Source: Parachlamydiales bacterium (GTDB lineage Bacteria; Chlamydiota; Chlamydiia; Chlamydiales; Rhabdochlamydiaceae). Taken from it: DNA of 64,000 nt. The notes under the pieces were generated by a model that was not told the origin of the DNA, ran no database searches, and saw only the letters and a list, made by a program, of their open reading frames with translations. The position numbers and the translations under genes are program-made. The stretch lies in NCBI GenBank assembly GCA_003153295.1, contig PLXY01000006.1, forward strand, positions 219,829 through 283,828, given 5' to 3'. Shown here piece after piece: positions 7,242-41,459 of the stretch (the stretch's first letter is position 1; each line of letters begins with the position of its first letter).

Positions 7242-7247
7242 GGGTTT

Positions 7248-15459: not shown

Positions 15460-16212
15460 ATGTCTAAAAAACTCGCAGGAAAAGTCGCTATTGTAACGGG
15501 TGCATCCAAGGGAATCGGGGCTTCAATTGCCCTCCATCTCGCAGCAGAAGGTGCTAGCGTAGTTGTTAATTATTCCTCCAGCAAAGAAGGCGCTGAGCGG
15601 ATCGCGAAAGAAATTCAGCAGAAGGGCGGCAAGTCGATGGTCATACAAGCTAATATGACGAATCAGAAAGAGATTCAACATCTCTTTTCTGAAGCTGAGA
15701 AAGCATTTGGCAAGCTTGATATCCTTGTCAACAACGCCGGTATTTACGATTTTACTCCTATCGATGAGTTTACTTCCGAGCATTTCCACAAAATGTTTGA
15801 TCTAAACGTGCTCGGTTTACTTCTTGCCTCCCAAGAAGCTGTGAAGAGATTCGGGACTAAGGGTGGGAGCATTGTGAATATTAGTTCGGTAGTGAGTATT
15901 TACTCAGAACCGGGGTTCTCTATTTACAGCGGTACAAAAGGCGCTGTCGATGCCATTACACGATCGTTAGCTAAAGAGCTGGGTCCACGCAAAATCCGTG
16001 TCAATACGATAAACCCAGGCCTAATAGAGACAGAAGGGACGCATGCCGGAGGCATGGCCGAAGGAGAGTTCCGACGGGAATTTGAAAAGAAAACTTCTCT
16101 TGGCAGAATCGGACAGCCGCAAGACATCGCCCATGCTGCCGTCTTCCTCGCATCGGACGATGCTTCATGGATCACCGGTGAATCGTTATTTATCACCGGC
16201 GGCCATGCCTAG
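15460..16212 (+). CDS. short-chain dehydrogenase/reductase (FabG-like)
   Basis: TGASKGIGASIA, NNAG, and the catalytic YSGTKGA (YxxxK). Confidence 0.9.
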   Translation: MSKKLAGKVAIVTGASKGIGASIALHLAAEGASVVVNYSSSKEGAERIAKEIQQKGGKSMVIQANMTNQKEIQHLFSEAEKAFGKLDILVNNAGIYDFTPIDEFTSEHFHKMFDLNVLGLLLASQEAVKRFGTKGGSIVNISSVVSIYSEPGFSIYSGTKGAVDAITRSLAKELGPRKIRVNTINPGLIETEGTHAGGMAEGEFRREFEKKTSLGRIGQPQDIAHAAVFLASDDASWITGESLFITGGHA

Positions 16213-23028: not shown

Positions 23029-24399
23029 CTATAAATCTTTCATGTATAGCTCCATTTGGAAGTGAGGCACGGGATGCCAGCTTGCAATAAACTCTCCCAC
23101 GATCTTAAAGCCTGCTTTTTGGTACACATGGATAGCTCGTTTATTGGTCGCTTCCGGGTCTATTAGAATTTTTTTCACATGGGAAAAGTGGCGGATTAAA
23201 AACTCCCGAATCATCGGCACGGCAATTCCTTTTCCTAGATAATTTAGGTCGCAAATGAACAAATCTAAGGTCGTCGCATTATTTCCTTCAGGAGAGGTGA
23301 TCAGAAAAGCAAAAGGGATATCTTTTTCATAACCAATCCAATAAGTTGTGTCGGATTCTCCGTGAAAAAACTTTTCTAAGCCGTTTAAAGTACTTTGAAG
23401 TCCGACTCCATGCATCCATTCTTTGATATGTGGTTGTTCAAACCAACTATGCAGCAGATTTTTTTGAGAGGGTAGAGCAGGTGCAAAGGAAAAAACTAAA
23501 TGGTGACGATCCTCTTCGATAACTTCCTGAATGACATGCCGTGCATTGTTTGCTAATACAGGGTTTGTATTTTTGTAGTAGGGGAGTGCGATGAGTGCGT
23601 TAGACAATGCCCAACCACGGCCTCGTTCCCATGTTGCATCATCGACAGCCAATGCCTGACGAAAGGTATTTCTCATTTCAGCGGGTAAAAGATTCCAGGC
23701 AATAATTAAGTCGCAGGCTGGATCTCCAATACCCATAATGCCAAAATCAATCACAGCACTCAGTCGGTCATTTTGGATGAGGAGATTTCCAGGGGATAGG
23801 TCGCCGTGTATCCAGACAGGTGGTTTCGACCATTGAGGAGCCTGTAAAGCCTTTTCCCAGATGGGGGTTACTGTTTGGACATCAATCATTCCTTCTAATT
23901 GCTGGAGAGCTTGTTGAGTCTCGAGGGCTTTCTCCTCTAAAGGTACTCCACGATTAGAAAGGGGGCCATGGAGTAGATCAACCTTTTGTAAGGCTTGAAT
24001 AAATATCACCAGATCGTGAGTGAGTAGAAGAGGATCAGAAAGATGGCCGACAATGGGATTATGACCTTCCAGCCACTTATAGACAGCCCAAGGCCAAGGA
24101 AAATCTTCTGTAGGAACTCCTTTGCCCAAAGGAGCAGGAATAGAAAATGGCAAGAAAGCTGCAAGTTTGGGGAGCCAGTTGCATTCTTTTTCAATAGTAT
24201 CAACGGCCCACCCAATGCGGGGAAGCCGAACAACCATCTCATCGCCCAGCCGATAAAGAGCATTATCAGTTCCAGCTGACAGAACGGGTTTAAGTGGTAA
24301 TTTTGCCCATGAGGGAAATTGCTTTGCGAGCAGTCGCTGGACAAGGGAGATATCAACTTCAAATTCGTCTGCATGCATTTTAGTCATGAATATCCGCAT
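23029..24399 (-). CDS. fusion protein: N-terminal aminoglycoside-phosphotransferase-family kinase plus C-terminal GNAT (AAC(6')/Acetyltransf_8-like) domain
   Basis: APH motifs include VWIHGDLSPGNLLIQNDRLSAVIDFGIMGIGDPACDL. The C-terminal LLHSWFEQPHIKEWMHG ... NYLGKGIAVPMIREFL ... NKRAIHVYQKAGF is GNAT-like. The true start may be M5 (24387) or M8 (24378). Confidence 0.8.
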   Translation of the reverse strand: MRIFMTKMHADEFEVDISLVQRLLAKQFPSWAKLPLKPVLSAGTDNALYRLGDEMVVRLPRIGWAVDTIEKECNWLPKLAAFLPFSIPAPLGKGVPTEDFPWPWAVYKWLEGHNPIVGHLSDPLLLTHDLVIFIQALQKVDLLHGPLSNRGVPLEEKALETQQALQQLEGMIDVQTVTPIWEKALQAPQWSKPPVWIHGDLSPGNLLIQNDRLSAVIDFGIMGIGDPACDLIIAWNLLPAEMRNTFRQALAVDDATWERGRGWALSNALIALPYYKNTNPVLANNARHVIQEVIEEDRHHLVFSFAPALPSQKNLLHSWFEQPHIKEWMHGVGLQSTLNGLEKFFHGESDTTYWIGYEKDIPFAFLITSPEGNNATTLDLFICDLNYLGKGIAVPMIREFLIRHFSHVKKILIDPEATNKRAIHVYQKAGFKIVGEFIASWHPVPHFQMELYMKDL

Positions 24400-24409
24400 G
24401 TTTTAAAAA

Positions 24410-24490
24410 GCCATTTAGCTGAGTAAAAGGCTCCAAGTCTTCTTCGCGCCATGGACGCAAAATCAATCGTTTTGTTTTAAGAATGGTCAT
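24410..24490 (-). pseudogene. orphan 5' stub of a RimJ/L-type GNAT gene
   Basis: It reads MTILKTKRLILRPWREEDLEPFTQLNG and then diverges. The N-terminus of the intact GNAT at 12489 is MTIIKTDRLILRPWKEEDIEPFAQLNG. The stub runs directly into the start region of the APH-GNAT gene. Confidence 0.6.
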
Positions 24491-24590
24491 AGGTTTCTAA
24501 GGGTTAACAGGAGGCATTTTACTAGTATTTTTTAGAGAAAGCAAGCGGACAGAACAATTTTCATAGCAATATTTTATTTAAAAAAATGCA

Positions 24591-24622
24591 TTGACCCTCA
24601 CGTATACGTCATTCCTTAGAAT
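24591..24622 (+). promoter_or_regulatory. second MerR-type long-spacer promoter, paralogous to 3068-3098
   Basis: TTGACC (24591-24596), a 19-20 bp spacer containing ACGTATACGT, then TAGAAT. The downstream leader ATCCTTTAAAATCAATGGGATATTAAAGG is nearly identical to the leader of the first MerR gene. Confidence 0.5.
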
Positions 24623-24669
24623 AGGGGCATCCTTTAAAATCAATGGGATATTAAAGGGAAAGGAAATCG

Positions 24670-25446
24670 ATGGCTTACACAGTTAAAAAATTAAGCGAAC
24701 TCTCTGGGGTGACGGTACGCGCTCTTCATTTCTATGAAGAAATAGGCCTTCTGAAACCGGCCTACCACGGCTCTAATGGGTACCGGTACTACGAAGAAAA
24801 GCAGCTTTTGGACCTCCAGCAGATCTTGTTTTTTAAGCAGCTGGGTTTTTCTTTGAAACAGATCCAAAAGGTTCTGGGACGAGACGATTTTGACCAGCTT
24901 TCGGCTCTTTATTCTCACAGGAAGTCTTTGAATCAAGAATGGGAAAAAATTGGCCTGCTGCTTAAGACCATCGATAAAACGATCAAACACCTAAAAGGAA
25001 AGAAAAAAATGAAAGACAAAGAAATTTTCGATGGTTTCGACGTCAATTTAGTGACGAAAGCAAAAAAAAGCGATTCCTATTACTCCGCTGAGGAGATCGT
25101 AGGGAAAAGCGTTAAAAACCCAACTAAGAATGTTCAAGATGTTGAAAAAAGAGGGAAAGCTTTCTACGATAATATAACCCAAACGACACACGCTATTTTC
25201 AAAGAGCTTGTTTGTTGCATCGAAAAAGGGCTATACCCTTCTTCGGATGAAGTGCAACGGATCATTAAGAAACATCATGCTTTTGCGGAGCAGATTCATG
25301 ATGCCACTCAAGAAGTATACAAAGCGCTAGCGCAGCTTTATCGGGAACATCCTGAATTCAGAAAGCAATTAGATCCATTTCATCCAGATCTAGCTGCATT
25401 TATGGCCGAAGGTATGAAGGTGTTTGCAATGAAAGAATTAGCTTAA
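24670..25446 (+). CDS. MerR family regulator with a TipAS-like domain (paralogue of 3144-3914)
   Basis: MAYTVKKLSELSGVTVRALHFYEEIGLLKPAYHGSNGYRYYEEKQL. By eye it is roughly 70 percent identical to the first MerR over the first ~120 aa. Confidence 0.9.
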   Translation: MAYTVKKLSELSGVTVRALHFYEEIGLLKPAYHGSNGYRYYEEKQLLDLQQILFFKQLGFSLKQIQKVLGRDDFDQLSALYSHRKSLNQEWEKIGLLLKTIDKTIKHLKGKKKMKDKEIFDGFDVNLVTKAKKSDSYYSAEEIVGKSVKNPTKNVQDVEKRGKAFYDNITQTTHAIFKELVCCIEKGLYPSSDEVQRIIKKHHAFAEQIHDATQEVYKALAQLYREHPEFRKQLDPFHPDLAAFMAEGMKVFAMKELA

Positions 25447-25481
25447 AGTCTTAAAAGAAGGGGCGGCTAGCAATGGCCGCC

Positions 25482-26357
25482 TTATTCAAAAAACGCCTCA
25501 AGAAATCGACGATTAGTTTTATACAAAGCAGCGCTGCTACTTTTCCAGGTTCCTCGCTTCACTGTAAATCCAATGGTAGCAATTGTTCTGCTCAGCCTCA
25601 AGAGAGGCATCAATTCTTTGTAATGAGGCACAGGACGAATAGTGGCATAACCTTCTAAAAAAGATGTTCTGATCGTTGGGTGAGAAGACCATTCTCCGTT
25701 TTCCAGGGGACAAAAATCGTCTTCTGAAAAGCTAGCTCGCGCTGAAGACCAATCAATAATTCCCTGGATCTTACTGTTATTAATGATCAAATTCCCGGGA
25801 CGAAAATCGCGGTGTATAATACAGGGGCCGTCGACTGAATCCAGGAGATGGATATGAGCATTGTAGTAACTACGGCATTGATCAATCAACGTTTGAGGTA
25901 AATGAAGACTGCATTCATCCAACCCTTCTTCAAATTTCAAAGTAAAATGAACTCTCGGATCAGAGGTCAAACTTTCTGGCTGTATGAGGTCTCCATAGCC
26001 CGTCGTACGGTTAAGATGTATTTGCGCAAGTAGAGAACCTATTTCATAAGCTAGAGCATTTGTGAGATCTGTTTTTTTGAGCACTGTCCCTGGTAAACAC
26101 TCCAATAAAAGAGCGCCATGGACATTTGTTGTTGGTTCCACGAGCTGGACGATTCTTGGTACCGGCAATTTATTGGCAAAATATCTTAAGAAATAGACTT
26201 CACGTCGATAGTCATTGGGCCGTTCGCAGATTTTTATAATCAGCTCAACACCATCTGGTTGTGTGATCTTGTAGACAGTAGCAACGATTGCATCCTCATG
26301 TTCAATGCGGGAAAAGGTAGCATTCTGGAGATGAAAATGTTGTCGATAATAATTCAT
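25482..26357 (-). CDS. aminoglycoside/choline-kinase-family phosphotransferase
   Basis: Brenner motif IIHRDFRPGNLIINNSKIQGIIDWSSA. The start was chosen at the internal MNYYRQ to avoid a 49-nt overlap; the track ORF extends to 26414. Confidence 0.8.
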   Translation of the reverse strand: MNYYRQHFHLQNATFSRIEHEDAIVATVYKITQPDGVELIIKICERPNDYRREVYFLRYFANKLPVPRIVQLVEPTTNVHGALLLECLPGTVLKKTDLTNALAYEIGSLLAQIHLNRTTGYGDLIQPESLTSDPRVHFTLKFEEGLDECSLHLPQTLIDQCRSYYNAHIHLLDSVDGPCIIHRDFRPGNLIINNSKIQGIIDWSSARASFSEDDFCPLENGEWSSHPTIRTSFLEGYATIRPVPHYKELMPLLRLSRTIATIGFTVKRGTWKSSSAALYKTNRRFLEAFFE

Positions 26358-26365
26358 TTTTGCCT

Positions 26366-27202
26366 TTAGCAACGGCTTAGGGGTGAAATCATAAACGGCT
26401 TGACTCGAGGCCAATTTCCATGAATTAAGAGGTGGTCCTTGTCATAAAGATAAGGTTCCGCGCTGGCTGCATCTGTTAAACGATCGGGGGAAAAATAGAA
26501 GTAGATGTCATCAATCGGAGCCGGTAAATGATCAAGAATCAACTCAAGGGAAGGAATTTTGCTAGTAATAATGTCATAGAGATGCAAAGTCTTGTCCTCT
26601 ATTACATAAGAAATAAGGCCGTTAAGAGACGGACTGTAGTAAAGCGACCAGAAGGTAGGATAGGTAGCAAAAAGCGTATGAAAAGGAGCAATAGTGCCAT
26701 TGTCTTTCACCCATACATGATTAGACAGAGGTGCGCGATTGCCAAAACAGTCAAGAAAAAGAGGATTATCTTTTGGAGTAGAGAGGGGTATTAAAGATTG
26801 GGAACCTTTGGGTCGTTTACACGACAAATGAAACCTGTATTCCTGAACATTTTGAAAGGAAAGTTTTTCGTAAAATGAGGGAATTTTTGAGAATAGGATC
26901 ACAAATTCATATTCTTTTTGAGCCCATTTTAGAACTTCTTGAATCAATTCCGATGACAAGCCCTGACCGCGATGGGAAGCTTTCGTGCAGATAGCATGAA
27001 GAGCTCCAGTTTTGTGCCATCGGCCTTCGATCAATAGGGGATACTCTAAAAAACCAACATGAGAAAGAATTTTCCCTTTAGCTTCTTTGAAAAATGGCTT
27101 GGATTCCCAAGGAAATCCAACCGTATTGCAACGAATAATGTTGGACTTAAGACCTGGGAAGGATTCTTCAAGTAAATTTAAGTAGGCGTTTTGTTCAGTC
27201 AT
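26366..27202 (-). CDS. GNAT N-acetyltransferase (Eis-like two-domain layout)
   Basis: The acetyl-CoA motif is LHAICTKASHRGQGLSSELIQEVLKWAQ. An additional C-terminal domain of about 150 aa is present. Confidence 0.75.
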   Translation of the reverse strand: MTEQNAYLNLLEESFPGLKSNIIRCNTVGFPWESKPFFKEAKGKILSHVGFLEYPLLIEGRWHKTGALHAICTKASHRGQGLSSELIQEVLKWAQKEYEFVILFSKIPSFYEKLSFQNVQEYRFHLSCKRPKGSQSLIPLSTPKDNPLFLDCFGNRAPLSNHVWVKDNGTIAPFHTLFATYPTFWSLYYSPSLNGLISYVIEDKTLHLYDIITSKIPSLELILDHLPAPIDDIYFYFSPDRLTDAASAEPYLYDKDHLLIHGNWPRVKPFMISPLSRC

Positions 27203-27282: not shown

Positions 27283-27325
27283 GGGACGGGCTGGGATTAA
27301 ACCACTGACCAACGGGTAATGAGTC
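27283..27325 (-). repeat. degenerate copy of the tRNA(CAU) 3' end (old att-like remnant)
   Basis: GGGACGGGCTGGGATTAAACCACTGACCAACGGGTAATGAGTC matches 37753-37795 at 37 of 43 positions, in the same orientation. Confidence 0.55.
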
Positions 27326-28860: not shown

Positions 28861-28875
28861 CCCATATCATCAATT

Positions 28876-28926
28876 TGGGGCAGGGTGGGATTGAACCACC
28901 GACCAAAGGGTTATGAGTCCGCCGCT
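28876..28926 (-). repeat. 51-nt near-perfect direct repeat of the tRNA(CAU) 3' half (attR-like island boundary)
   Basis: TGGGGCAGGGTGGGATTGAACCACCGACCAAAGGGTTATGAGTCCGCCGCT equals 37752-37802 with a single C-to-A difference, in the same orientation. Confidence 0.8.
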
Positions 28927-29035
28927 TCATAAGGTTCTTTTCTAAGCAAGGAACTTGCCCATGCCGGTATCATTTGAATCGGTCTTCGCGTCTATTCAAA
29001 GAGGGTCAAGATAAGTTGGCTTATTTGACCTTTGA

Positions 29036-32000
29036 TTAGAAACGGAGGGCGACGACGAATCCAACATCTTGAGCCCAATATCTACTGCCTATTTCAGCAT
29101 CATAATAGATCAAGGCATCCACCATACCACAGGCGCGTTGATAGGTGAGGGCTAGACCTGGAGAGAACAAGTTGCGTTCGAAGTTCCTGCCTTTGCCTAA
29201 GAAGCTGCAGGTAGAGCTCACGAAGTTGGCATGGTAGTTCTTGCTAGAGCCTGGGGTTTGGTTGATGTATGCTAGTTTGAGTGTAGGAGCAAACACCCCT
29301 CTGCAACCACAGTATTTGGTGCTGATTAGAATTCCACCGTCCCCTTGGAAGAGTGTCCCATTTTTGGTCTTCACATGCAGGTCAAGGCTTTTAGCCCCTT
29401 TTTCGGTGTAGCTATCTTCATGCAGCCCTACATAATCTAGATTGATGTAAGGGGTCCATTGAAAGTTGCTTGAGCACACTTGATAGCCCACGCCGAAATT
29501 GGTCAGCCACTCATTCCCGCTGTGATGAGAGTGAGCATGTCTGTTGATCGTTCCGAAGTGGAGATGACGCGTGGTTCTATAGTTATTGTGTGCGCCGAGA
29601 AAAGCCGCGTTGATGTAAAAACCATCGTGATTCCAACGACCGTATAATCCTCCGTAGAAGCTGTTAACGTTAGCTTTGCCGTAAGATTGTTGCCAATGGA
29701 ACATATCGTGGGTATAGCTGAAGGCAGCTCCTAGAACCAAGTGATGAATGCGGTAATCGGCACCGATCGTAGCACCGACAGTGGTGTCGTTATATCCAAA
29801 GAGGTTATGTGATTTGTTTTGATGTTGCCATTGTCCGGTAATATCGCTCCAGAAGCTAATGGTCCTCCCACAGCACCAATCTTCGTTTAATCGAAGCTCT
29901 TGCATGTGTTTGGTATAGGTGGAACGGACGAGGATGGCATCGAGCAGCTGAACCTGAGAAATGTCAGAGAGCTGCGCAGGCCCCATTTGCCCGAAAGCTT
30001 TCTGGATATCGTCGAAACTTAGCCCAATCAATACAGCATTCACAGCAGTTGTATCGGATCCAGCGGGAGCGGTGATATAGCAGCTCGCAGCTTTCTTGGC
30101 GTTGCCTTTGAGGCTGAGAGAATCGAATGGCAAATAAATCAGTTGGACGGTCAAAGGATCATAGATCAAGCTCATGAGAGCGGGGACGGTGCTTGTTAGC
30201 GAAGAGAATGTTCCTGAAACACCCGTGCCAGTGCTGATGATAGTATAGGTGAGTGGAGTTGTGAAGCCAAGGTCATCAGGAGTAACAACGACGCTACCGC
30301 CAATCTGAGCAGATCCGGAAGCGATAATCTGATCGCTACTCCCTGAGGAGTTGACTTCAACATTATAGACACTTGTAGAGCCTAGCAAGAGATCAGTGGT
30401 ATGGACGGTGCCGATGGAATTGCCTGGCGAGATTGTCCCACTGCTACTGATGTTTCCGCTGACTGTGGCGTTGCCCGATAGTGTGCCGGCAGATTCAATA
30501 GACAAATCTCCGACAACGGATCCATTCAGATTAAGAGTTCCCGATTGGACTGTGGTGCCCCCGACATATGTATTATTCCCGTTCAGGCTGACGGTCCCGG
30601 TGCCGGTTGTCAGTAATCCAGGGCTTGAGATGAAAGATCCAGCTCCGCAAATGGGATTAGTAATGGTAAATGTTCCGTTGATCTGTAAGGTTAAGTTGCC
30701 CCCCGATTGGATAAAAATATCATTTCCAAGAGATGATCCGTTTCCTCCATTAAATCCGCTTGTGGCCGTGCCTCCGATCCCAGCAGTCGTCGAGTTACCG
30801 GAAAAATTTGTGCCGTCTTGAATGATGAGAACGGCGCCTGTTTGAATATAGATGGCCCCTCCAAGTCCGGAACCTCCTCCTCCGCCCGCTGACAGTCCTG
30901 CTCCCGAACCGCCGGATCCGCCGAGCCCATTGGGATCTATTCCACCCGTGCTGCCGCCACCTCCTCCCGCTCCAAAACCTCCATTGCCGCCAGTGGTACT
31001 AGAAGAAGCTCCTCCGCCTCCGCCGAGAGATCCCCCATTCCCCCCAGGACCAAGGTATCCGCCGCCGCCGCCGCTTGCCCCATCGCCTGCGCCTCCTCCT
31101 CCGTAACCTCCGCCGGGGCCGCCGACGCCGTAAGTGTTATTTGCACCGAAGCCAAGGCCGCCATGGCCACCTATACCAGGAGGAGGGGCACTAGATCCAG
31201 CGCTACCACCCCCACTAGAACCACCGCCTCCGCCGCCACCTCCACCTTCCGTGGTAGTCCCCGCGCCACCCGGACCACCCGATGTGGCAGGCATAGCTGC
31301 ATTGGAACCTCCAGCTCCCGCTGGGTGAGCGGGAGTGGTGCCGACCCCTGCGCCTCCGCCGCCAGCGCCTCCGTAGTTTTGGAACGTGTTGGGAGAACCC
31401 GCATGGTTTCCCGTTGTGGCTCCAATGGTTCCACCGGCATTGCCACCGCCTCCGCCGCCAGCACCATTAGTTGCGCTTGCTGAACCGCCGCCGCCGCCGC
31501 CGAAGCCTCCACCACCGCCACCGGAGGTGCCAGCGGCGTGGCCAGCTCCCCCAGCGCCGCCGCTGGCTTGGTTGGTATTGAGAGCCACAGTAGAGATAGT
31601 CATGACGGTACCTTCGTGTACGTAGAGAGCGCCGCCCCCGCCAGTGCCTCCGCCTCCGCTGGTGAAGCCAGATCCACCAGGACCACCTTGCGAAAGACCA
31701 TTCTGAATAGTGAGGTCAGAAATAGTTGCCGAGCCTTGGCCCAACGAGAAAACTGGATGAGCACTACCCCCATCGATGGTCACGCCGTAGCCAAGAATAG
31801 TCAGCGTTGATGAATTTTTTCCTATAGCCGGCAGGGGAGTTGATAAGGAGATTGTTTCTCCGGCGATCATTGAGCAGTCGATGATGGTGTCATCTACTAC
31901 GACGTTTTGAAGAGCGAGATTCAGCGAGCCGCTGGTACCGCCATCGTTGTCAGTGACATAAATGGTGGTAGATCCGTAGATCAATGGGTTTTCGATAGTG

Positions 32001-32059
32001 AAAGCAAAGAGAAGCTGCCACAAGAATGCAGGGAACTTTTTCATGGATTTACGAAACAC
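29036..32059 (-). CDS. autotransporter / polymorphic-membrane-protein-like adhesin with an extreme glycine-rich passenger
   Basis: Signal peptide MKKFPAFLWQLLFAFT. Pmp-like GGAI/FxxN elements are present (GGAIYIQTG, NFSGNST). About 270 aa are GGxGG low complexity. The C-terminal beta-barrel domain (..FSYTHD..YGGLYGRW..NFGVGYQV..) ends in the aromatic ALRF. Confidence 0.85.
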   Translation of the reverse strand: MFRKSMKKFPAFLWQLLFAFTIENPLIYGSTTIYVTDNDGGTSGSLNLALQNVVVDDTIIDCSMIAGETISLSTPLPAIGKNSSTLTILGYGVTIDGGSAHPVFSLGQGSATISDLTIQNGLSQGGPGGSGFTSGGGGTGGGGALYVHEGTVMTISTVALNTNQASGGAGGAGHAAGTSGGGGGGFGGGGGGSASATNGAGGGGGGNAGGTIGATTGNHAGSPNTFQNYGGAGGGGAGVGTTPAHPAGAGGSNAAMPATSGGPGGAGTTTEGGGGGGGGGSSGGGSAGSSAPPPGIGGHGGLGFGANNTYGVGGPGGGYGGGGAGDGASGGGGGYLGPGGNGGSLGGGGGASSSTTGGNGGFGAGGGGGSTGGIDPNGLGGSGGSGAGLSAGGGGGSGLGGAIYIQTGAVLIIQDGTNFSGNSTTAGIGGTATSGFNGGNGSSLGNDIFIQSGGNLTLQINGTFTITNPICGAGSFISSPGLLTTGTGTVSLNGNNTYVGGTTVQSGTLNLNGSVVGDLSIESAGTLSGNATVSGNISSSGTISPGNSIGTVHTTDLLLGSTSVYNVEVNSSGSSDQIIASGSAQIGGSVVVTPDDLGFTTPLTYTIISTGTGVSGTFSSLTSTVPALMSLIYDPLTVQLIYLPFDSLSLKGNAKKAASCYITAPAGSDTTAVNAVLIGLSFDDIQKAFGQMGPAQLSDISQVQLLDAILVRSTYTKHMQELRLNEDWCCGRTISFWSDITGQWQHQNKSHNLFGYNDTTVGATIGADYRIHHLVLGAAFSYTHDMFHWQQSYGKANVNSFYGGLYGRWNHDGFYINAAFLGAHNNYRTTRHLHFGTINRHAHSHHSGNEWLTNFGVGYQVCSSNFQWTPYINLDYVGLHEDSYTEKGAKSLDLHVKTKNGTLFQGDGGILISTKYCGCRGVFAPTLKLAYINQTPGSSKNYHANFVSSTCSFLGKGRNFERNLFSPGLALTYQRACGMVDALIYYDAEIGSRYWAQDVGFVVALRF

Positions 32060-32310
32060 AAATGGTCACCAAATTAGTCGCAGAAAAGGGAAAACATTTT
32101 AACTGCACACTAACAAGAGATAACATGAAAAACAATTTTTTTTTAAATACTCTCTTGAATATCAACTCAGCGGAATCTCGGTTTTTTACTTACTTTCCTC
32201 TGGGTTTGAGATCGCATTTTATTTAGACCAGAATGGGGGCTAGTTAAGGATTCTTGAAGATAAAAACATTAGGAAACAAATGAAAGCTTTTCTACATTTG
32301 AATCCTCATA

Positions 32311-32961
32311 ATGGAGGATACAATGAAGCAAGTCATAAAAGGTATGATCTTTCTACTTATGGTATTGGTCTGTCGTCAAGGGGTAGCAAATGGCAACAAA
32401 CAAGAAAAAATCAGTTGGAAGTTATTCCAAGTTGACGAGAGAGCCGTTCTCATCAGTAATGATCATGAGATATGGTTATTACATGGATTACAACCCAATA
32501 AGCTAACCTGGAGTGAATGGGTATGGAGAGAAGATGTACCACAACCGGATGCTTGCTATTTTTTCAATATGGAAAAATGGGAAGAAGGCAAGAAGATCTC
32601 TATTGTTTATTTTCCTTGGCAAGATTGCGCGTGGAAAGACACCTATCGCAATGATGCTTCTTTATTGCAACGCTGTGATTATGTGATCGAAAATGATGCT
32701 TGCAAGACTCGTGTTTTTGCAAAACCAGTTCAGATAGATGAAGTGAAGTCACTGTATGCTAATCTTCGTGAACGTGCGTCCGACCTAGTAAGGAGAGGCT
32801 TTTTCGGGCATGCAGCAGGACTACTTGAACAGGAACTTGTGTTTATCAACTTCAAAGAGAAAGTCTTAACAGAATGTAAAAATAAAATGGAAAGAAAGCC
32901 TTTTGATGGGCAATATACGGCATTTTATGAAAAACATGGACCTTTCGACCAGATAAATTGA
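32311..32961 (+). CDS. secreted hypothetical protein (Trp/Cys-rich)
   Basis: Signal peptide MKQVIKGMIFLLMVLVCRQGVANG. I recognise no family. The start may be at 32323. Confidence 0.5.
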   Translation: MEDTMKQVIKGMIFLLMVLVCRQGVANGNKQEKISWKLFQVDERAVLISNDHEIWLLHGLQPNKLTWSEWVWREDVPQPDACYFFNMEKWEEGKKISIVYFPWQDCAWKDTYRNDASLLQRCDYVIENDACKTRVFAKPVQIDEVKSLYANLRERASDLVRRGFFGHAAGLLEQELVFINFKEKVLTECKNKMERKPFDGQYTAFYEKHGPFDQIN

Positions 32962-32992
32962 AGAAAAAAATTCTGAGTTTTTTGCTTAAGCT

Positions 32993-33124
32993 AGCGGAAT
33001 CTCACACCTTTCCAGAGATTCTGCAACTTTTATGCTAAAAGCTGCAGAATCCCACTTTTTTTGACAGATTCTGCGAGTTTTATGCTAAAAGCTGCAGAAT
33101 CTTGCTTTTAATTCCCGATTCTGC
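32993..33124. repeat. 50-bp-period tandem hairpin array (copy 2), ending 12 nt before the ATPase ATG
   Basis: GC(G/A)GAATC occurs at 32994, 33044 and 33094. GATTCTGC occurs at 33017, 33067 and 33117, with exact 50-bp spacing. The hairpins are AGATTCTGCAACTTTTA-TGC-TAAAAGCTGCAGAATC and ATTCTGCGAGTTTTA..TAAAAGCTGCAGAAT. Confidence 0.8.
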
Positions 33125-33136
33125 GAGATTTAAAGG

Positions 33137-34594
33137 ATGAATACAAAAAATCCGGTTTTTGCCCGAAAGCGGGAACTCAAGATACTCCAACAACTCTATG
33201 ATTCAGGAAAACCTGAATTTCTAGCTATTTATGGCCGCAGGCGGATAGGGAAAACCTTTCTTATTCGGGAGTTTTTCAAACATAAAGGGCTCTATTTTGC
33301 TCTCACAGGAGTCAAAGAGGCCAGTGTGAAAAAGCAGCTCAAAAACTTTACAGCAGAATTTACCAGGGTATTTGGCCGGTCGGAAGATGATGAACCCTTA
33401 AAGAATTGGTTTGAGGCCTTTGCACAATTGAGAAAAGCACTAGAGACAGTGAAAGGACCTGAAAGGATTATCCTCTTTTTTGATGAACTGCCGTGGTTAG
33501 CGACTCCCCGTTCGGGATTTCTTCAAGATCTTGACCATTTCTGGAACCGCTATCTCTCGGAAGATAATCGAGTGGTCCTCGTCGTATGTGGATCAGCAGC
33601 GTCATGGATGATCAGAAAAATCGTCCGTAATAAGGGAGGGCTCTATGGACGTCTGACCGCCCAGATTCGCCTTCTACCCTTCGATCTAAAAGAGACAGAA
33701 GAATATCTGCGACATCAAGGAATGACCTTAAATCGCAAGGCCATTGTCGATATTTACATGGCAATCGGTGGAATTCCTAAGTATCTCAGTTATATCCAAA
33801 AAGGCCAGTCAGCCATGCAAATTGTCGGCCAGCTTTGTTTTGATGGACCTCTTGCAGAGGAGTTTGACGAGCTTTATGCATCCCTTTTTGAGCGCCACCA
33901 TCGTCATGTTAACATCATCAAGGCTCTGGCAGAACATCATGGAGGCTTGATGAAGTCCCAGATTGCTAAAGCAACTGGCCTCTCAACAGGAGGCGGGATG
34001 AATATAGTCTTGGAAGAACTTGAGCAATCGGGATTTATTCTTGCGATCAAAGATTTTGGCAAACAAAAGAAAGAAAGCCGTTATCGCTTGATTGACGAAT
34101 ACTCTTTGTTTTATCTCAAGTGGGGACAAAAAGCTAAAGAAAGTAATTTGAGAACCCAGGATGATATGTTTTGGGTAAATGTCTTCAACAGCCCGCTGGG
34201 TCAGGCCTGGGCAGGTTATGCTTTTGAAATGTTATGCCTTAAACATCTCTCCAAAATTAAAGAAGCTCTGGGCATCGCAGGTGTTTTGACAAATGCTTCA
34301 GGATGGATTTATAGGCCCTCGAAAGAAAGTCATGAAAGAGGGGTGCAAATCGACCTGCTTATCGATCGTGCAGATAACTGCATTAATCTCTGCGAGATTA
34401 AATACCGCAATGAAGAATTCACTATCAACAAAGCCTATGACAAAGAATTGAGAGAAAAAAAGGCTATTTTTCTAACGCAGACCAAAAGTAAAAAAAGCGT
34501 TTTTATCACGCTGATTTCCCCATATGGAGTCAAAAAAAACGTAGGTCATTTTGGGACTGCTGAGGTGACTTTGACCATGGATGATCTTTTTTAA
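33137..34594 (+). CDS. AAA+ ATPase of the COG1672 type (paralogue of 21544-23001)
   Basis: IYGRRRIGKTFL, ILFFDELPW, C-terminal GVQIDLLIDRADNCINLCEIKY. 485 aa, collinear with the paralogue. Confidence 0.85.
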   Translation: MNTKNPVFARKRELKILQQLYDSGKPEFLAIYGRRRIGKTFLIREFFKHKGLYFALTGVKEASVKKQLKNFTAEFTRVFGRSEDDEPLKNWFEAFAQLRKALETVKGPERIILFFDELPWLATPRSGFLQDLDHFWNRYLSEDNRVVLVVCGSAASWMIRKIVRNKGGLYGRLTAQIRLLPFDLKETEEYLRHQGMTLNRKAIVDIYMAIGGIPKYLSYIQKGQSAMQIVGQLCFDGPLAEEFDELYASLFERHHRHVNIIKALAEHHGGLMKSQIAKATGLSTGGGMNIVLEELEQSGFILAIKDFGKQKKESRYRLIDEYSLFYLKWGQKAKESNLRTQDDMFWVNVFNSPLGQAWAGYAFEMLCLKHLSKIKEALGIAGVLTNASGWIYRPSKESHERGVQIDLLIDRADNCINLCEIKYRNEEFTINKAYDKELREKKAIFLTQTKSKKSVFITLISPYGVKKNVGHFGTAEVTLTMDDLF

Positions 34595-34865
34595 TTTCAT
34601 AGATTGATGTCATCGGCTTCCTGTCATCTAACAATCTTTGACCCCATCCACCAATGGAGTTCGATCAGCTCTTGTTGATAGACATCGCTGCTGAATCCAA
34701 ATTGCTTTTAATCAGGCCTAAGGGTTGGGAGTCTGCACTCTAACCAATTTTTAGCAGCCCATCTTAAAATGTTACGTTTGAGCGATTTTATTAAGATGCT
34801 TACTAGTAGGAAAGAATGCAGGAAAAAAACAATAGACTTTGTTAGAGACTTATCCCTCTGCAAAA

Positions 34866-35627
34866 CTACTCTATTGTTTCCTTACTTTTTATTCCTATGC
34901 CTCCAAGAGGATTGCCATAATCTTGGTATGTCGAAAGAAAAAGAAGGTTATATATGACCTTTGCAAGGTAATCAATGTAGAGTTGTACTTCTTCCCATTC
35001 CGGTTGATAAGTTGGATTTTCGAGATCAACGTGAGCTGCAATCTGATCTCTATAAGCGTTTATAATTTTTCTTTTCTCAAACAAAGCATTTTTAATTTCT
35101 ACAAAATTTTCTGGGCGTGGTTGCCCTTGTTCATTTAAACCAAATTTAAAAAATTCTTTTGTAAGTTGTTTGTATCGAATTAAATGAGTAGAGTATAAGT
35201 TTTTGTGAACCGAATTAGTATTATTGGATACCTCTACAAGTTTCTCTAAAGGTGTTTTTTTAAATAGACATGTGTATTTAGAGTTGATTGAATTAATCAG
35301 AGATAAGGTTTTATCTGTGATATCAGAAAGAGAAATGGGAATAAATTTGCATAGATCTTCAAATAGCATCATAAGAGAAATATTTCGCACTGATATATTT
35401 GGTAAGCTTTGTGCGACAATGGCAAGTATTTGAAATTTATGCTTCACTATATCGAGGGGATCCAAAATCTCGATCTTTATTTTATTAGAAAACTCTTCTC
35501 GCAATAAATAATGCACGTCAAGATTGTCTATAATAAATTTGGTATGTTCTTCCTTGAGTAAGGGACGTTTAGATCCGTTGAACAGCCATTCAATCTTTCC
35601 ATTAAGAAATGGGGGTAAAGTTTTCAT
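34866..35627 (-). CDS. hypothetical protein with an Rx5H motif, candidate HEPN (AbiU2/Abi-like) RNase
   Basis: ...EKRKIINAYRDQIAAHVDLENP... fits the HEPN Rx4-6H signature in the R[DN]xxxAH form seen in Abi-type HEPN families. The gene starts 22 nt after the AbiEii stop on the same strand and is AT-rich. Confidence 0.45.
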   Translation of the reverse strand: MKTLPPFLNGKIEWLFNGSKRPLLKEEHTKFIIDNLDVHYLLREEFSNKIKIEILDPLDIVKHKFQILAIVAQSLPNISVRNISLMMLFEDLCKFIPISLSDITDKTLSLINSINSKYTCLFKKTPLEKLVEVSNNTNSVHKNLYSTHLIRYKQLTKEFFKFGLNEQGQPRPENFVEIKNALFEKRKIINAYRDQIAAHVDLENPTYQPEWEEVQLYIDYLAKVIYNLLFLSTYQDYGNPLGGIGIKSKETIE

Positions 35628-35649
35628 TTTTTTAACTCTTATGCTCTCT

Positions 35650-37002
35650 TCAATCGAAGGTATTATAGGGATGTTTTATCTTAGCAACATCAACTATTCT
35701 TTTTCTCATTTTTGGAGGCAATTCTCCTATAGGTTGAAACCAAAAATATAGGGTTCCTACTGCATCTATTCTATTGTTCCAGTCATTAAGAAAATAACCT
35801 GGCACTAGAAAAATCTCACCTAATTGTGCCTTGTCTAATTTTGTGTATGTACGATTGTAATCTTGACTATTATAGGTAACAAATCCTCTCCCAGAGTCTC
35901 CATGAACATAAAACAAAACCACTTCATAAATTTTGTTGTGATCATATTGCGCTTGCCATTTTTTAGAAACTGTCTCGAAAATTAAAGGCTGACATAAGTG
36001 ATCTTCAGAACTATTGAGTTCATTCGCTTCCTGATGAGTTAATTTTACAAGTCGACTTTTATATAACTTAAAATGCCCTAATGTCAGGTAAACATATTGG
36101 GCACAGTTTTGATCCATTGATGGAGCGGTTTCAGAAGTGCACAATTGTGTGTTATATATCAACCACACATTGATTGCAGAAATAACATCCTTGATGGACT
36201 CTGGGAGTAAAGTGGTCATTTGACTACTAGAAAGATCTTGTAGATAGTCCTCCCATAACGGTTGCAGCACACTTATGTATTCATTGTCAAATTGCAACGG
36301 TAATTTCTGAAGTGAAGTTTGTCTATGGTTAAAGACAGTCACTACGACCTTGTCAATATAATTTGTTTTTAAACATCCTTGTAATGAAATAAGCGTATAG
36401 AGATCATGAAAATCCTTCATTCGGGTATTTCCAATGCCACGCTGAATAACAGTTTCAAGTTTCTCTGCAAAAATGAACTCCTTTGGATAAGAAAGTACTT
36501 GAATTTTGCTTTCAAATAAGGGGCCTTTTGAGGTTGATATCAAATCCAGTGAATAATCAATTGCTTCTACTACATCTCCAAAACCCAAATCAATCTGAAG
36601 ATGAGTTTGTGGTCCACCGAGGTTCGCCAATAGTAAGACTCTTATACCATTGTAGGCCATGTGCGGATGCGTAAGTTTGCCAATTTTCACTTTTTCAAAA
36701 ACAAAACCGTCATCAAGATGAATATTGCAAATGTCATCAAATGCAATGCTCAAAAGCTCTTCTGTATTTTTCAGTCTTTCAACTAGAAAGTCTAAATCTT
36801 TTGTTTCTCGTCCTATAGGGATATATCTAGCTAAGAGCGATCCGCCTTTTAAAATGAAGTTTTGCTTGTATTGGGACTGACAAAGACGAGCTAAAAATCT
36901 TTCCAAAATCAAACTATGCCAAATTTCGTCATAAGTCAAGTTACGTGTTCTTGCAACAGCACGTAGACGTTCTTTTATAGATTGCTTTAAAGAATTTTTC
37001 AT
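35650..37002 (-). CDS. AbiEii/AbiGii-family nucleotidyltransferase toxin with an extra C-terminal domain of about 150 aa
   Basis: Pol-beta NTase motifs are FILKGGSLLARYI, TKDLDFLV and RMKDFHDLYTL. At 450 aa it is longer than the roughly 250-330 aa typical of the family. I do not recognise the tail (..VVLFYVHGDSGRGFVTYNSQDYNR..). Confidence 0.8.
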   Translation of the reverse strand: MKNSLKQSIKERLRAVARTRNLTYDEIWHSLILERFLARLCQSQYKQNFILKGGSLLARYIPIGRETKDLDFLVERLKNTEELLSIAFDDICNIHLDDGFVFEKVKIGKLTHPHMAYNGIRVLLLANLGGPQTHLQIDLGFGDVVEAIDYSLDLISTSKGPLFESKIQVLSYPKEFIFAEKLETVIQRGIGNTRMKDFHDLYTLISLQGCLKTNYIDKVVVTVFNHRQTSLQKLPLQFDNEYISVLQPLWEDYLQDLSSSQMTTLLPESIKDVISAINVWLIYNTQLCTSETAPSMDQNCAQYVYLTLGHFKLYKSRLVKLTHQEANELNSSEDHLCQPLIFETVSKKWQAQYDHNKIYEVVLFYVHGDSGRGFVTYNSQDYNRTYTKLDKAQLGEIFLVPGYFLNDWNNRIDAVGTLYFWFQPIGELPPKMRKRIVDVAKIKHPYNTFD

Positions 37003-37595
37003 GTTGTTAGCGCCATTATGTACGGGTGGATATCTACCCGAAGCAACTTAGCATACTTCATAAGCTTATTGAGATTGGGTTTATCAGAGTTTTCTTGATC
37101 TAGATAGGCTTGTAGAGCCTTGATTGCCACCTCACGGCTAAGATAACGAAAGGCATCGACAACTGTTCTTTCTTTATCAAAAATTTTTAGACAATGAGTG
37201 GCTATTTGAATTTTTGTTTGACCTAGATCAATGTTGCGCATTCGAATGATTCGTGTTTTGAATCTTTGAGGACTCTTTAATGCATGTGGAATGGCGATCC
37301 AAAATTCTCTCATTATTTGATCTGTTAGACCATAATAGCAGAGAGCTGAAATTAGACAGATTACACCATTTGGTATGCTCATCGCTATCAAAGCAAGATC
37401 TTCCCACTGAAAAGCGATGTTTATTTTTGCTTGTAAACCCTTATAGACGCCTCGGGCTATCCGTTCTATCATGCCTTTTTTGCAAAAATGAGAAAGCATG
37501 CGGGAAGGAATACCAGCATGTCGCGCCTCAGCAGCAGTGAAAACTGGTGTTTCCACAAAAACTTGAATCAGAGCAGCATATTTGGATGAAGACAT
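36999..37595 (-). CDS. AbiEi-family type IV antitoxin / transcriptional regulator
   Basis: The N-terminal winged-helix segment is VFTAAEARHAGIPSRMLSHFCKKGMIERIARGVYKG. Its stop overlaps the AbiEii start by 4 nt (ATGA-type coupling). Confidence 0.8.
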   Translation of the reverse strand: MSSSKYAALIQVFVETPVFTAAEARHAGIPSRMLSHFCKKGMIERIARGVYKGLQAKINIAFQWEDLALIAMSIPNGVICLISALCYYGLTDQIMREFWIAIPHALKSPQRFKTRIIRMRNIDLGQTKIQIATHCLKIFDKERTVVDAFRYLSREVAIKALQAYLDQENSDKPNLNKLMKYAKLLRVDIHPYIMALTT

Positions 37596-37611
37596 ATCTT
37601 ATATGTAACAT

Positions 37612-37640
37612 AAGCACCCAAAAAAAGCAATTGGGTGCTT
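37612..37640. promoter_or_regulatory. 10-bp-arm inverted repeat upstream of abiEi (candidate autoregulatory operator)
   Basis: AAGCACCCAA-N9-TTGGGTGCTT lies 17 nt upstream of the AbiEi start codon. AbiEi proteins are known to repress their own promoters through inverted repeats. Confidence 0.35.
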
Positions 37641-37751
37641 GAATTACATAATTAGTTCTCTGAACTTGCTGTTTTTGAGCTATTTAAGGGTGATACTACA
37701 AATCAGGACAATCGTTTATTTTCGAAGGGTATTGTTAATAGAAAATAAACT

Positions 37752-37824
37752 TGGGGCAGGGTGGGATTGAACCACCGACCAACGGGTTATGAGTCCGCCG
37801 CTCTAACCACTGAGCTACTGCCCC
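37752..37824 (-). tRNA. tRNA with a CAU anticodon (Met, or Ile2 if lysidine-modified)
   Basis: The reverse complement GGGGCAGTAGCTCAGTGGTTAGAGCGGCGGACTCATAACCCGTTGGTCGGTGGTTCAATCCCACCCTGCCCCA folds as a cloverleaf: a 7-bp acceptor, D-arm GCTC/GAGC, anticodon loop CTCATAA and T-arm GGTGG/CCACC. The body resembles tRNA-Ile2. Confidence 0.9.
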
Positions 37825-39332: not shown

Positions 39333-41459
39333 TCAAGAATAGATCACAAAGCCGTCATCATAGACGGGTCCGTTGATGCCGATTTTTAAGGTTCCGCTGA
39401 AAAACTGCTTATACATTTTTAGACCTTGCGCAGCGCTTTGGACGCAGTAAAAGCAATTGCTGACCCATTCGGAGCCAGAGATAGTACCGGTCTCTAAATT
39501 GCAGCGGAATCTCGAAGAGAGTTTCTTTTTCCAATATTCAGGAGAGCCAAAAAGCAGGACAGGCGTCGGTGCTGCTGCGCCGACTTTGCGGCGGACTTCT
39601 TCGAGGCAGAATTCAAAATCAGTGCCGATGCCTCCCATGAGAAAGATCGGAAAGTCGAGATTGAACTCGGCTTGCCTTTCAACAAGTTTATCCAAACGAT
39701 AGGTCATTTTGGCATCAATGTAGGGGTTTTGTTTTTGTTCGTTGACCACTGCTCCTTTTTCTCCGCGGAAGTCCATGATATTAGCGCAGGAGAGGATGCC
39801 GATTTTTTTTGCGACGCGGTTTCCAAGTCCCATGGAACCCGGCCCTCCGCCGGTGACTAGGGCAATTGGTGTGTCTCGGTTTAAAAGAGGATGATGCATT
39901 TCTTTAGAGAGTTGGACAAGTCCCAAGAGAAGATCGGAAAGCTCTTTTTCAAAAGACCCTTCTGAGAGATTAGAGCCGTAGAGACCAAAAAGGGTCGATT
40001 TCAAAAAGGTTTCGACAGCTTCTGGAGGAACAAACATCCCGGAGTCTTTATGGGGCTTGGGGAAATACTGTAAGATTTTTTGCGTCGCCTCATCGACCCA
40101 GTACGTTGGAATCCCGAACTTGGCCAGATCTAAAAGGAGCGACCGGTCTTCATGAGAAAAATAATCTCCATAAGTCCGGGAAGGATATTTAAAGTAAATT
40201 CCCTTGAGGTTCCGGTGGATTTGGTCGCTGAGCAGCATCTGTTTTAAAAGCGGGGAGGGGAAATAACGGGTCAGCAAGATCCCTTCGCTGGTGATCAGAC
40301 CGTCTTCAATGGCTTTTAAAAAAGGAAAGGAGGGCTGCTGATGGATATATTTTTCAACAGCAACGGCCTGCCGGTCGGGATTGACGACGCCGGGAAATTC
40401 GCTCATGCGGGGCTCTCGGGAGATCCAATCGTTAGGTTTAAGTTGGAGGAGCTGCTCGCCTTTGACAACAAAGACAGCGGTCAAATGATGAAGAGGGGCA
40501 GGAGCTGTGTCAAAAGCATGAAAGACAACTTCAGGATTTTCTAGGCAGGTCTGGAGTTGGTCTCTATCAGCGAAGAAGACGTGCTCGCGATGAGGCTCTA
40601 AGGTGTAAAATTCCAGGGGAATATCGCTCAACTCTTTTTTAGACTCACCATAAAGTTCATAGATGTTTCCTGAGGCTTTTGTATCAGGCTGGAGGACTGA
40701 TGCAGAGGTATGATGGACGCCTTCGGGAAGAAGTTCTTCCACGACGCGAGCATAAACCGTGCGGATATGGAGCGGCAGTGTTTGGACAAGGAGGATTTCA
40801 TCTTTTTTAACAATCCGGGAAGCTCCCGGCTGCCAGATCTGTTGCAGTTGCAAAAGAGATCTGGTCTTGACACGAGGATCATGAAGAGCTTTAGCGAGGA
40901 TCGGAAGAAATCCTGGCATATGTTCATCGTAGAAGACGGCGCCATCGAGCAGGCTCAAAAAGGCGACAGTTCTGCCATCGATTTTTTCTAAAACCAGCTC
41001 ATCGCTGCCTTGAAGGCCTCCCAAAGAAAGAAGAGGAAGTCCATTTCTATCAGCACGACCAAACATGCGGGAAAGATATTCGGGATCCCGGACGCGTCTT
41101 CTGTCATCAGCGGCAAAAAGTTTGCCGATGAAAGCGCCTGGAGATAATAAGGGCAGCATCAATTTTGCCAGTGATCCTATGGCCTCTAAGTGGAGGATAA
41201 TCCGGGCGAAATGGGCGTTAGCATCGAGTTCGATCGATTGGGGAATGGCGTTAAGGCCGAGCTGAGCAAGCGTGCTTTTAAAATTAAATTTTACGAGTTG
41301 AGGATCTATTTTAAAACCGACAAAAGCAGGAGAGATATTTTCAATGAGGACTTCTGCAACCGATTGAGTCGGGCTTGTATTCTGGATTGAACTGATCTTG
41401 CCATCGGGAGTAACTAGGTCAAAATGGTCAGAAAAAAGATAACTTTCCATGAGTTGCAT
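39333..41459 (-). CDS. large protein with a C-terminal LOG/PpnN-like (TIGR00730) nucleotide-nucleosidase domain
   Basis: VTGGGPGSMGLGN and LMGGIGTDFEFCLEE match the LOG-family GGGxGxMG and PGGxGTxxE motifs. I do not recognise the ~500-aa N-terminal region. Confidence 0.6.
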   Translation of the reverse strand: MQLMESYLFSDHFDLVTPDGKISSIQNTSPTQSVAEVLIENISPAFVGFKIDPQLVKFNFKSTLAQLGLNAIPQSIELDANAHFARIILHLEAIGSLAKLMLPLLSPGAFIGKLFAADDRRRVRDPEYLSRMFGRADRNGLPLLSLGGLQGSDELVLEKIDGRTVAFLSLLDGAVFYDEHMPGFLPILAKALHDPRVKTRSLLQLQQIWQPGASRIVKKDEILLVQTLPLHIRTVYARVVEELLPEGVHHTSASVLQPDTKASGNIYELYGESKKELSDIPLEFYTLEPHREHVFFADRDQLQTCLENPEVVFHAFDTAPAPLHHLTAVFVVKGEQLLQLKPNDWISREPRMSEFPGVVNPDRQAVAVEKYIHQQPSFPFLKAIEDGLITSEGILLTRYFPSPLLKQMLLSDQIHRNLKGIYFKYPSRTYGDYFSHEDRSLLLDLAKFGIPTYWVDEATQKILQYFPKPHKDSGMFVPPEAVETFLKSTLFGLYGSNLSEGSFEKELSDLLLGLVQLSKEMHHPLLNRDTPIALVTGGGPGSMGLGNRVAKKIGILSCANIMDFRGEKGAVVNEQKQNPYIDAKMTYRLDKLVERQAEFNLDFPIFLMGGIGTDFEFCLEEVRRKVGAAAPTPVLLFGSPEYWKKKLSSRFRCNLETGTISGSEWVSNCFYCVQSAAQGLKMYKQFFSGTLKIGINGPVYDDGFVIYS

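Follow-up and report, generated by a model that had tools for sequence, protein, structure and literature searches.

AbiE systems are toxin-antitoxin modules made up of two overlapping genes with the antitoxin gene first; Streptococcus agalactiae AbiE, lactococcal AbiE/AbiG and M. tuberculosis MenAT are examples, and they have been classed as type IV and, in a recent proposal, as type VII. The operator of S. agalactiae AbiE consists of two 23-bp inverted repeats. The antitoxin AbiEi represses transcription and neutralises AbiEii, whose addition of nucleotides to tRNA halts translation (PMC7450476; PMC3985639; bioRxiv 10.64898/2026.01.19.700257), and AbiEi autoregulation has been described via operators given only as 'inverted repeats' (PMC3985639; PMC7319586). 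In addition, auto-phosphorylation is reported to inactivate AbiEii, and a phosphatase to restore its activity (bioRxiv 10.64898/2026.01.19.700257). In the MNT-HEPN (MntA/HepT) toxin-antitoxin systems of type VII, a nucleotidyltransferase (NTase) gene lies upstream of a HEPN gene with an Rx4-6H motif on the same strand. Another family, AbiU2 (AbiUii, PF18734), was placed in the HEPN superfamily by Anantharaman et al. 2013 (PMC3710099); in Lactococcus, AbiUi alone gives resistance and AbiUii lowers resistance and is not the resistance determinant (PMC13064643), so even the reference AbiU2 member is without a proven effector role. We analyzed a stretch of 64,000 nucleotides from a Parachlamydiales bacterium (contig PLXY01000006.1, positions 219,829 to 283,828; hereafter the window), in which an antitoxin gene abiEi, an extended toxin gene abiEii and a predicted HEPN gene lie head to tail on the minus strand. 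An earlier note on this DNA had proposed that the three genes form a hybrid AbiE/MNT-HEPN system. Our results indicate that they are probably two independent defence cassettes, set head to tail by a recent rearrangement in an integrase-less, decaying tRNA-Met island of an environmental chlamydia (Simkania/Parachlamydiales relatives).

The abiEi gene (36999-37595) codes for an AbiEi_4-type antitoxin of 198 aa, a predicted autorepressor, and overlaps by 4 nt (ATGA, 36999-37002) with abiEii (35650-37002). The 450-aa product of abiEii carries the motifs KGGS, KDLDF and KDFHDLY. Its N-terminal part (residues 1-284, 36151-37002) is the DUF1814 nucleotidyltransferase toxin domain, and the remainder (residues 285-450 and the stop codon, 35650-36150) is an orphan, beta-rich C-terminal domain (CTD). 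After a spacer of 22 nt (35628-35649) follows the third open reading frame (ORF; 34866-35627), whose 253-aa product contains YRDQIAAHVD and is assigned below to the AbiU2 family. The ORFs, motifs, overlap and gap are all as the earlier note gave them. The first cassette (35650-37650) would be a self-contained AbiE toxin-antitoxin/abortive-infection pair. From what is known of the family, AbiEi would repress its own promoter via an upstream palindrome and neutralise AbiEii, and released AbiEii would add nucleotides to tRNA and block translation. The second cassette (34842-35641) would be a solo AbiU2-family HEPN gene coding for a predicted RNase that presumably acts, or acted, independently of AbiE.

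The two cassettes differ in where their similarity to other loci stops. The nucleotide homology of the AbiE cassette to a related chlamydial locus (L008) covers 35650-37648, and that of the HEPN cassette to 10 loci begins at 35627-35641. Because the homology of both cassettes breaks there, a recombination junction is likely to lie inside the 22-nt spacer. The intergenic region of about 160 nt between the integrase and HEPN genes, common to 7 relatives, is wholly absent from the window. On the other side, blastn homology to L001 continues to 34777, past the old HEPN stop, and in the alignment with L001, L005, L015, and L019 the similarity past the ancestral stop fades by about 34790. These approximately 50 nt (34790-34841, plus strand) are a stump left from the 3' end of an NTP_transf_8 gene, which was once the neighbour of the HEPN gene and convergent to it. 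By tblastn, no intact NTP_transf_8 or AbiEi_2 was found in the window, and no integrase within the island. The simplest history would start from a tRNA-Met island in which an integrase gene was divergent from the HEPN gene and the latter faced a convergent NTP_transf_8/AbiEi_2 pair (int <- -> HEPN -> <- NTP_transf_8/AbiEi_2). The integrase side would then have been replaced by the AbiE cassette, and the NTase pair lost on the other side as the island eroded.

In the neighbourhoods of related loci, the three genes do not form a conserved unit. A total of 25 loci were collected, and the relevant proteins were mapped by tblastn on the first 22 (L001-L022); the other three came from a metagenome scan with alignment A7, L023 lying on the L003 contig and L024 and L025 spanning only 1.3-1.7 kb. 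With L001/2, L003/4, and L006/7 each counted once and L022 omitted, since it is cut within the HEPN gene, about 17 distinct HEPN contexts remained. The HEPN gene is divergent from a tyrosine integrase gene in L003/4, L005, L014, L015, L017, L018, and L022, and directly follows tRNA-Met in L001 and L006; tRNA-Met was found beside the HEPN loci L001, L006, L014, L018, and L019. On its other side stand convergent NTP_transf_8 and AbiEi_2 genes (L001/2, L005, L006/7, L009, L014, L015, L016, L019, and L020), a convergent Metallophos_2 gene (L003/4, L017, L018, and L021), or neither (L010 and L011). An AbiEi_4/AbiEii (PF08843) pair upstream of the HEPN gene was found in none of the approximately 17 other distinct loci. 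Similarly, the AbiEi_4 and AbiEii-CTD pair has no HEPN gene beside it in any of the three other loci with this cassette, where the next gene is PMP-like (L008), encodes a metallophosphoesterase (L012), or is convergent and encodes an ABC transporter (L013). The co-occurrence of the third gene with AbiEii homologues elsewhere, which the earlier note had named as a test of its proposal, was thus seen in none of these loci. Genes can come to lie close together on one strand by a recent accident, which homology breakpoints together with neighbourhood surveys expose.

Several observations were made in these loci besides the gene order of the HEPN cassette. One or the other cassette is accompanied in several loci by a Metallophos_2 phosphoesterase of about 170-180 aa (L012, 7377-7916; L003, 10805-11317; L017, L018, and L021). 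In L012, it lies 12 nt downstream of the AbiEii-CTD gene on the same strand, and in four other contexts it is convergent to the HEPN gene. The L012 arrangement may be of interest, since reactivation of AbiEii by a phosphatase has been reported (bioRxiv 10.64898/2026.01.19.700257). This 179-aa ORF of L012 was considered as a relative of the HEPN protein and rejected (hhalign probability 0.3%); it carries GDxxLGD/GNHD motifs and is 60-67% identical to Metallophos_2 genes. In L003, tRNA-Met-derived repeats (438-484 and 16041-16090) flank an integrative element that holds HEPN, RepB-primase, and DUF3987 genes. In L006, the insertion of an insertion sequence (IS) element with a DDE transposase (6953-7837) splits the HEPN gene. 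At the tRNA-Met hotspot, environmental chlamydiae recombine a limited set of defence cassettes, comprising AbiE-CTD, HEPN, NTP_transf_8/AbiEi_2, and Metallophos_2.

A three-component system, in which AbiEi regulates transcription and the extended AbiEii modifies or controls the HEPN RNase in the manner of MntA and HepT, or in which the two toxins cooperate, would account for the single strand and the tight packing, for the absence of a predicted terminator between the genes and for the intact HEPN motif, and the extra domain of the toxin could be an adaptor. We nevertheless consider such a system very unlikely. The order of the three genes is unique to the window when compared with the other HEPN and AbiEii-CTD loci, the spacer holds the recombination junction, the CTD occurs without the HEPN gene and the HEPN gene without the CTD, and the HEPN copy of the window has a nonsense codon. 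The locus shares with MNT-HEPN systems only the order of an NTase gene upstream of an Rx4-6H HEPN gene on one strand, and departed from them in all three defining features tested. Firstly, the NTase there is a small MNT antitoxin, whereas the only one here is a DUF1814 toxin of 450 aa that is paired with an antitoxin of its own, and no MNT family was matched in Pfam at E ≤ 1. Secondly, the HEPN protein there is of the HepT/DUF86 type, which we take the AbiU2-family protein of the window not to be. Thirdly, the NTase-HEPN pairing of the window is conserved in no other locus examined. The window is therefore better annotated with one AbiE system, one solo AbiU2-like HEPN gene that is possibly decaying, and one PDC-S27 gene than with a new composite system.

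A looser partnership might also be envisaged, in which AbiU2-like HEPN proteins work beside AbiE-like NTase pairs and the window has swapped a lost pair for an analogous one. The HEPN gene stands tail to tail with NTP_transf_8 in at least 10 loci (8 distinct contexts), from a 4-nt overlap to about 50 nt apart, and one gene away in L009; moreover, the window keeps the stump of such a pair and its HEPN gene now adjoins another AbiE pair. However, genes in convergent orientation are not co-transcribed, and the NTP_transf_8 pairs share 85-90% identity (65-71% for L009), so that they stand largely for one inherited cassette and not for repeated association. The pair is also replaced by Metallophos_2 in four contexts and absent from two others, and the retrieved contexts exclude the distant members of the HEPN family. 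No further contexts for the latter were found on viral contigs or on plasmids; the cluster members were singletons, on contigs mostly shorter than 8 kb. This partnership is improbable in our view, if a little less so than the three-component system.

Some findings nonetheless weigh against two independent cassettes. No terminator was predicted in the 22-nt spacer, and none of the sigma-70-type promoter matches ends in the roughly 190 nt before the HEPN start, so co-transcription of all three genes is likely. The HEPN gene adjoins an AbiE-like NTase pair in 8 of the approximately 17 other contexts as well as in the window, which could exceed what hitch-hiking on islands would give. The loci compared are few and come from a narrow phylogenetic range, all of them being Chlamydiota, and most of the NTP_transf_8 contexts probably derive from one ancestral cassette. 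From sequence alone, a functional interaction between AbiE and the HEPN protein in the window's own genome is conceivable. Furthermore, direct scans of the 253-aa protein itself (Pfam, PADLOC, NCBIfam, PHROGs, and PDB sequences) returned nothing usable and no Pfam match, and a Foldseek search of its model against the PDB gave no significant match to a HEPN fold or any other, returning generic helical bundles only (best E 0.32).

The promoter and terminator scan of the locus gave site numbers no higher than chance, and the transcription units are not settled by any site. A TATAAT in the 3' end of abiEii, 31-36 nt before the HEPN start, was not counted as a -10 element, having no properly spaced -35. 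Since the native promoter is gone and the scan predicted no terminator between the genes, expression of the HEPN gene, if any, would probably come only from read-through of the abiE promoter.

The HEPN gene of the window is 8 codons short. Its C-terminus reads ETIE-stop-FCRGISL-stop (TAG, then TAA), and most relatives read ETIEWFCKGISL-stop. Eight aligned relatives have TGG (Trp) at the codon 34866-34868, where the window has TAG, a nonsense mutation through which 8 residues were lost. The untranslated former last 7 codons and the ancestral TAA remain at 34842-34865, with the old stop still in frame at 34842-34844. Compatible with two independent cassettes is the possibility that this gene is a non-functional relic, promoterless and C-terminally truncated, and that only the AbiE pair is active. 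Of the 11 relatives that reach the C-terminus in the close-family alignment A1, 9 conserve the lost tail WFCKGISL, the native upstream region is gone, and the island has lost both its integrase and the neighbouring pair. On the other hand, the 253 remaining codons are open with no frameshift and 64-74% identical to the near-full-length A1 relatives (55% for P0011), none of the catalytic residues R, D, and H is altered, and read-through from abiE could express the gene. The missing tail also lies past the last predicted helix (211-233), as far as a low-confidence model can place it. We regard a relic as a possibility worth keeping in mind, but a doubtful one.

The identification of the third gene product as a HEPN protein, also made in the earlier note, holds at the level of the family and gained no direct Pfam match and no structural match. 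The family is tiny, with 15 proteins in an index of 5.8 billion sequences and 38 cluster representatives among 1.84 billion in a profile search. Among 30 aligned members, which share 13-30% identity, only H199 is invariant, and R193, D194, F160, and P170 are the only others conserved at 90% or more. R193-x5-H199 fits Rx4-6H; the family form is R-D-x3-A-H, and the motif YRDxxAAH is conserved. Pfam HEPN_AbiU2 (PF18734) was matched by 18 of the 30 members, the best being P0055 (51.3 bits, 1.3e-13), and it was the only HEPN family returned when 13 members were scanned against Pfam at E ≤ 10. Close relatives reached 15-24.7 bits, below the gathering threshold of 26.8, and P0053 (28.7) and P0055 exceeded it. 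The A1 profile found P0055 at 8.9e-4 among 1.84 billion proteins, and hhalign linked the close family to P0055 with a probability of 87.7% (E 3.4e-6) across the motif region. Consistent with AbiU2 proteins, which are all-alpha, about 200-260 aa long, and found among defence and mobile-element genes with an R-[DN]-x3-A-H motif, the AlphaFold2 (AF2) model of the window protein is all-alpha (predicted local distance difference test, pLDDT, 59.7). The structure search speaks neither for nor against HEPN, because the model is of low confidence and only generic bundles were returned. Some fellow members of the sequence family pass the Pfam threshold, whereas the window protein and its Chlamydiota relatives stay just short of it (best 24.7 versus 26.8 bits) and form a rare, divergent branch. 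These sequence comparisons support the assignment of the third gene product as a divergent AbiU2-family HEPN protein and putative metal-independent RNase. One distant member, P0030 (557 aa), has an FRG-like domain (sub-threshold, 20.1 versus 25 bits) N-terminal to its AbiU2-like HEPN domain.

The first two genes matched AbiE profiles well, in agreement with the earlier reading. The abiEi product matched Pfam AbiEi_4 (2.7e-10, residues 17-51), weakly AbiEi_1 (residues 80-183), and over its full length the PADLOC AbiEi profile PDLC02254 (7.5e-86, residues 5-198), as expected of an AbiEi antitoxin in which an N-terminal winged-helix DNA-binding domain precedes a C-terminal antitoxin domain. Its orthologues in L008 and L012 are 78-81% identical, each preceding an AbiEii-CTD gene. 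The 450-aa protein matched Pfam AbiEii (PF08843; 8e-34, residues 35-263), PADLOC AbiEii (1.1e-67, residues 2-281), and the solved AbiGII structure in the PDB (9hlo_B, 8e-21), and the toxin motifs KGGS, DLDF, DLGFGD, and KDFHD are conserved in the AbiEii alignment A4. Like described AbiE systems, the locus has bicistronic overlapping genes with the antitoxin first (the same pair occurs in L008, L012, and L013), a full-length AbiEi match, a DUF1814 NTase in which the motifs G[GS], DxD, and KDFHD are present, an inverted repeat in the putative promoter region, and a location on a mobile island. By these matches, the two genes are a canonical AbiEi/AbiEii pair. When PADLOC was run on the window, AbiEi, AbiEii, and PDC-S27 were matched and the HEPN protein was not.

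A palindrome lies just upstream of abiEi (37602-37650), where it would overlap the promoter. The inverted repeat with perfect 10-bp arms (37612-37621 and 37631-37640) that had been placed in operator position does exist, and over the extended palindrome its arms agree at 85%. L008 and L012 are the two other loci that have an orthologous abiEi/abiEii pair and intact upstream sequence, and the palindrome is conserved in both: the 17-nt arms (TGTAAyNCAAGyACCCA) are complementary at 15 of 17 positions in the window, L008, and L012 alike. Its distance to the ATG is equal in the window and L012 and 11 nt longer in L008, which has a short duplication there, and the sequence further upstream is unrelated among the three. 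Because it is conserved in two other loci, the palindrome is not a chance match. It is a candidate operator for the predicted AbiEi autorepression and agrees with the autoregulatory inverted repeats reported for AbiEi (PMC3985639; PMC7319586). It is a single palindrome with 17-nt arms, unlike the two repeats of the S. agalactiae operator.

Unlike the toxin of nearly all AbiE homologues, which has about 290 aa, that of the window carries the orphan CTD of about 165 aa (residues ~285-450), outside both the Pfam and the PADLOC AbiEii matches. Nearly all of the 120 best AbiEii homologues have 280-305 aa and end in NTQLC, exactly where the extension starts. Among these 120, about 7 homologues carry the CTD. 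Three are full-length (P0056 and P0058, 454 aa; P0095, 447 aa), and the partial ones are a fragment (P0059) and the pieces P0016-18, of which P0016 is the tail of the frameshifted L008 copy. A word-based search with the CTD only returned three fragments; it missed P0056, P0058, and P0095, which were recovered by the full-length search. Sequence searches of Pfam, PHROG, and PDB with the CTD gave no match. Its AF2 model, built from 8 sequences, was mostly beta (pLDDT 71.6; predicted template modelling score, pTM, 0.65), and Foldseek with this model against PDB and BFVD returned nothing below E 0.5. The alignment has 25 invariant columns, including GYFL.DWNNR and WFQP. A stretch HGDSGR was considered as a catalytic motif by comparison with the serine-protease GDSGG and rejected, as it is not conserved in P0095. 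The CTD, which the earlier note had rightly called unrecognised, is thus a real, rare domain and not a common annotated AbiEii variant.

The CTD is lineage-restricted and fast-evolving. It diverges faster than the NTase domain, with identities to the window of 32% versus 62% in L013 and 62% versus 76% in L012. The closest relative of the NTase domain, P0062 (81% identical), is without the CTD, and the sister protein P0096 (an AbiEii of 426 aa) has C-terminal ankyrin repeats instead. The likeliest, if speculative, role of the CTD is that of an exchangeable accessory module that senses a trigger or binds a target. A more specific idea, which we put forward tentatively and consider rather unlikely as it stands, is that it is a new sensor or target-recognition module through which a particular trigger or substrate is coupled to the DUF1814 toxin, and that domain swapping, as with the ankyrin repeats of P0096, retargets AbiE. 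The rare variant may inform how DUF1814 toxins are triggered or targeted. In terms of families, the AbiE pair belongs to a known one and adds a single new feature, the orphan CTD, and the HEPN gene is a divergent AbiU2 member; the CTD is the only unexplained part of the locus.

The three genes lie at one end of an island of about 8.8 kb (28927-37750). It is bounded on the right by tRNA-Met (CAT; 37752-37824, minus strand, ARAGORN), the integration target, which lies 156 nt upstream of abiEi on the same strand, and at the other attachment (att) end by a 52-nt copy of the tRNA 3' end (28875-28926; 98% identical, in direct orientation by blastn-short and alignment). The genes are AT-rich, as had been noticed before, with GC contents of 0.32 (HEPN gene), 0.35 (abiEii), and 0.395 (abiEi), compared with a window average of 0.436 and with 0.45-0.47 in flanking genes. 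Like other tRNA-targeting defence islands, this one has direct repeats of a tRNA 3' end and AT-rich, unrelated defence cargo (AbiE, HEPN, and PDC-S27). Relatives keep a tyrosine integrase gene beside the HEPN gene, whereas the window copy has lost it and also carries an autotransporter gene. The convergent neighbour within the island (33137-34594, plus strand) codes for a candidate defence ATPase (PADLOC PDLC04984, PDC-S27, 1.6e-182; Pfam ATPase_2, 2.5e-21).

Further features were observed in and around the island. A second PDC-S27 paralogue (21544-23001; PADLOC 2.2e-190), 52% identical to the first, lies about 6 kb past the outer att copy. A third, degenerate copy of the tRNA-Met 3' end was found at 27292-27325 (34 nt, 91% against 37751-37802, direct orientation), and the extra copies suggest that tandem islands accreted at one tRNA. 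The hairpin at 37714-37750, with perfect 10-bp AT-rich arms (GTTTATTTTC and GAAAATAAAC) and a 17-nt loop, starts 2 nt past the tRNA-Met 3' end; it could serve as the terminator of the tRNA gene or belong to the att core. Beside the AT-rich defence genes, inside the att-bounded island, 29036-32059 (minus strand) codes for a 1007-aa autotransporter (Pfam beta-domain, 1.4e-44), whose passenger region is extremely Gly-rich, with GC up to 0.67. Just outside the islands, a cluster at 23029-27202 codes for an APH phosphotransferase, an APH-GNAT fusion, a GNAT protein, and a MerR/TipAS regulator, and looks like antibiotic-modifying cargo. The 216-aa ORF at 32311-32961 (plus strand) gave no Pfam, PADLOC, or PHROG match. 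The 708-aa ORF at 39333-41459 (minus strand) gave no Pfam match, and its gene is partly conserved in L001, with 71% nucleotide identity over 467 nt.

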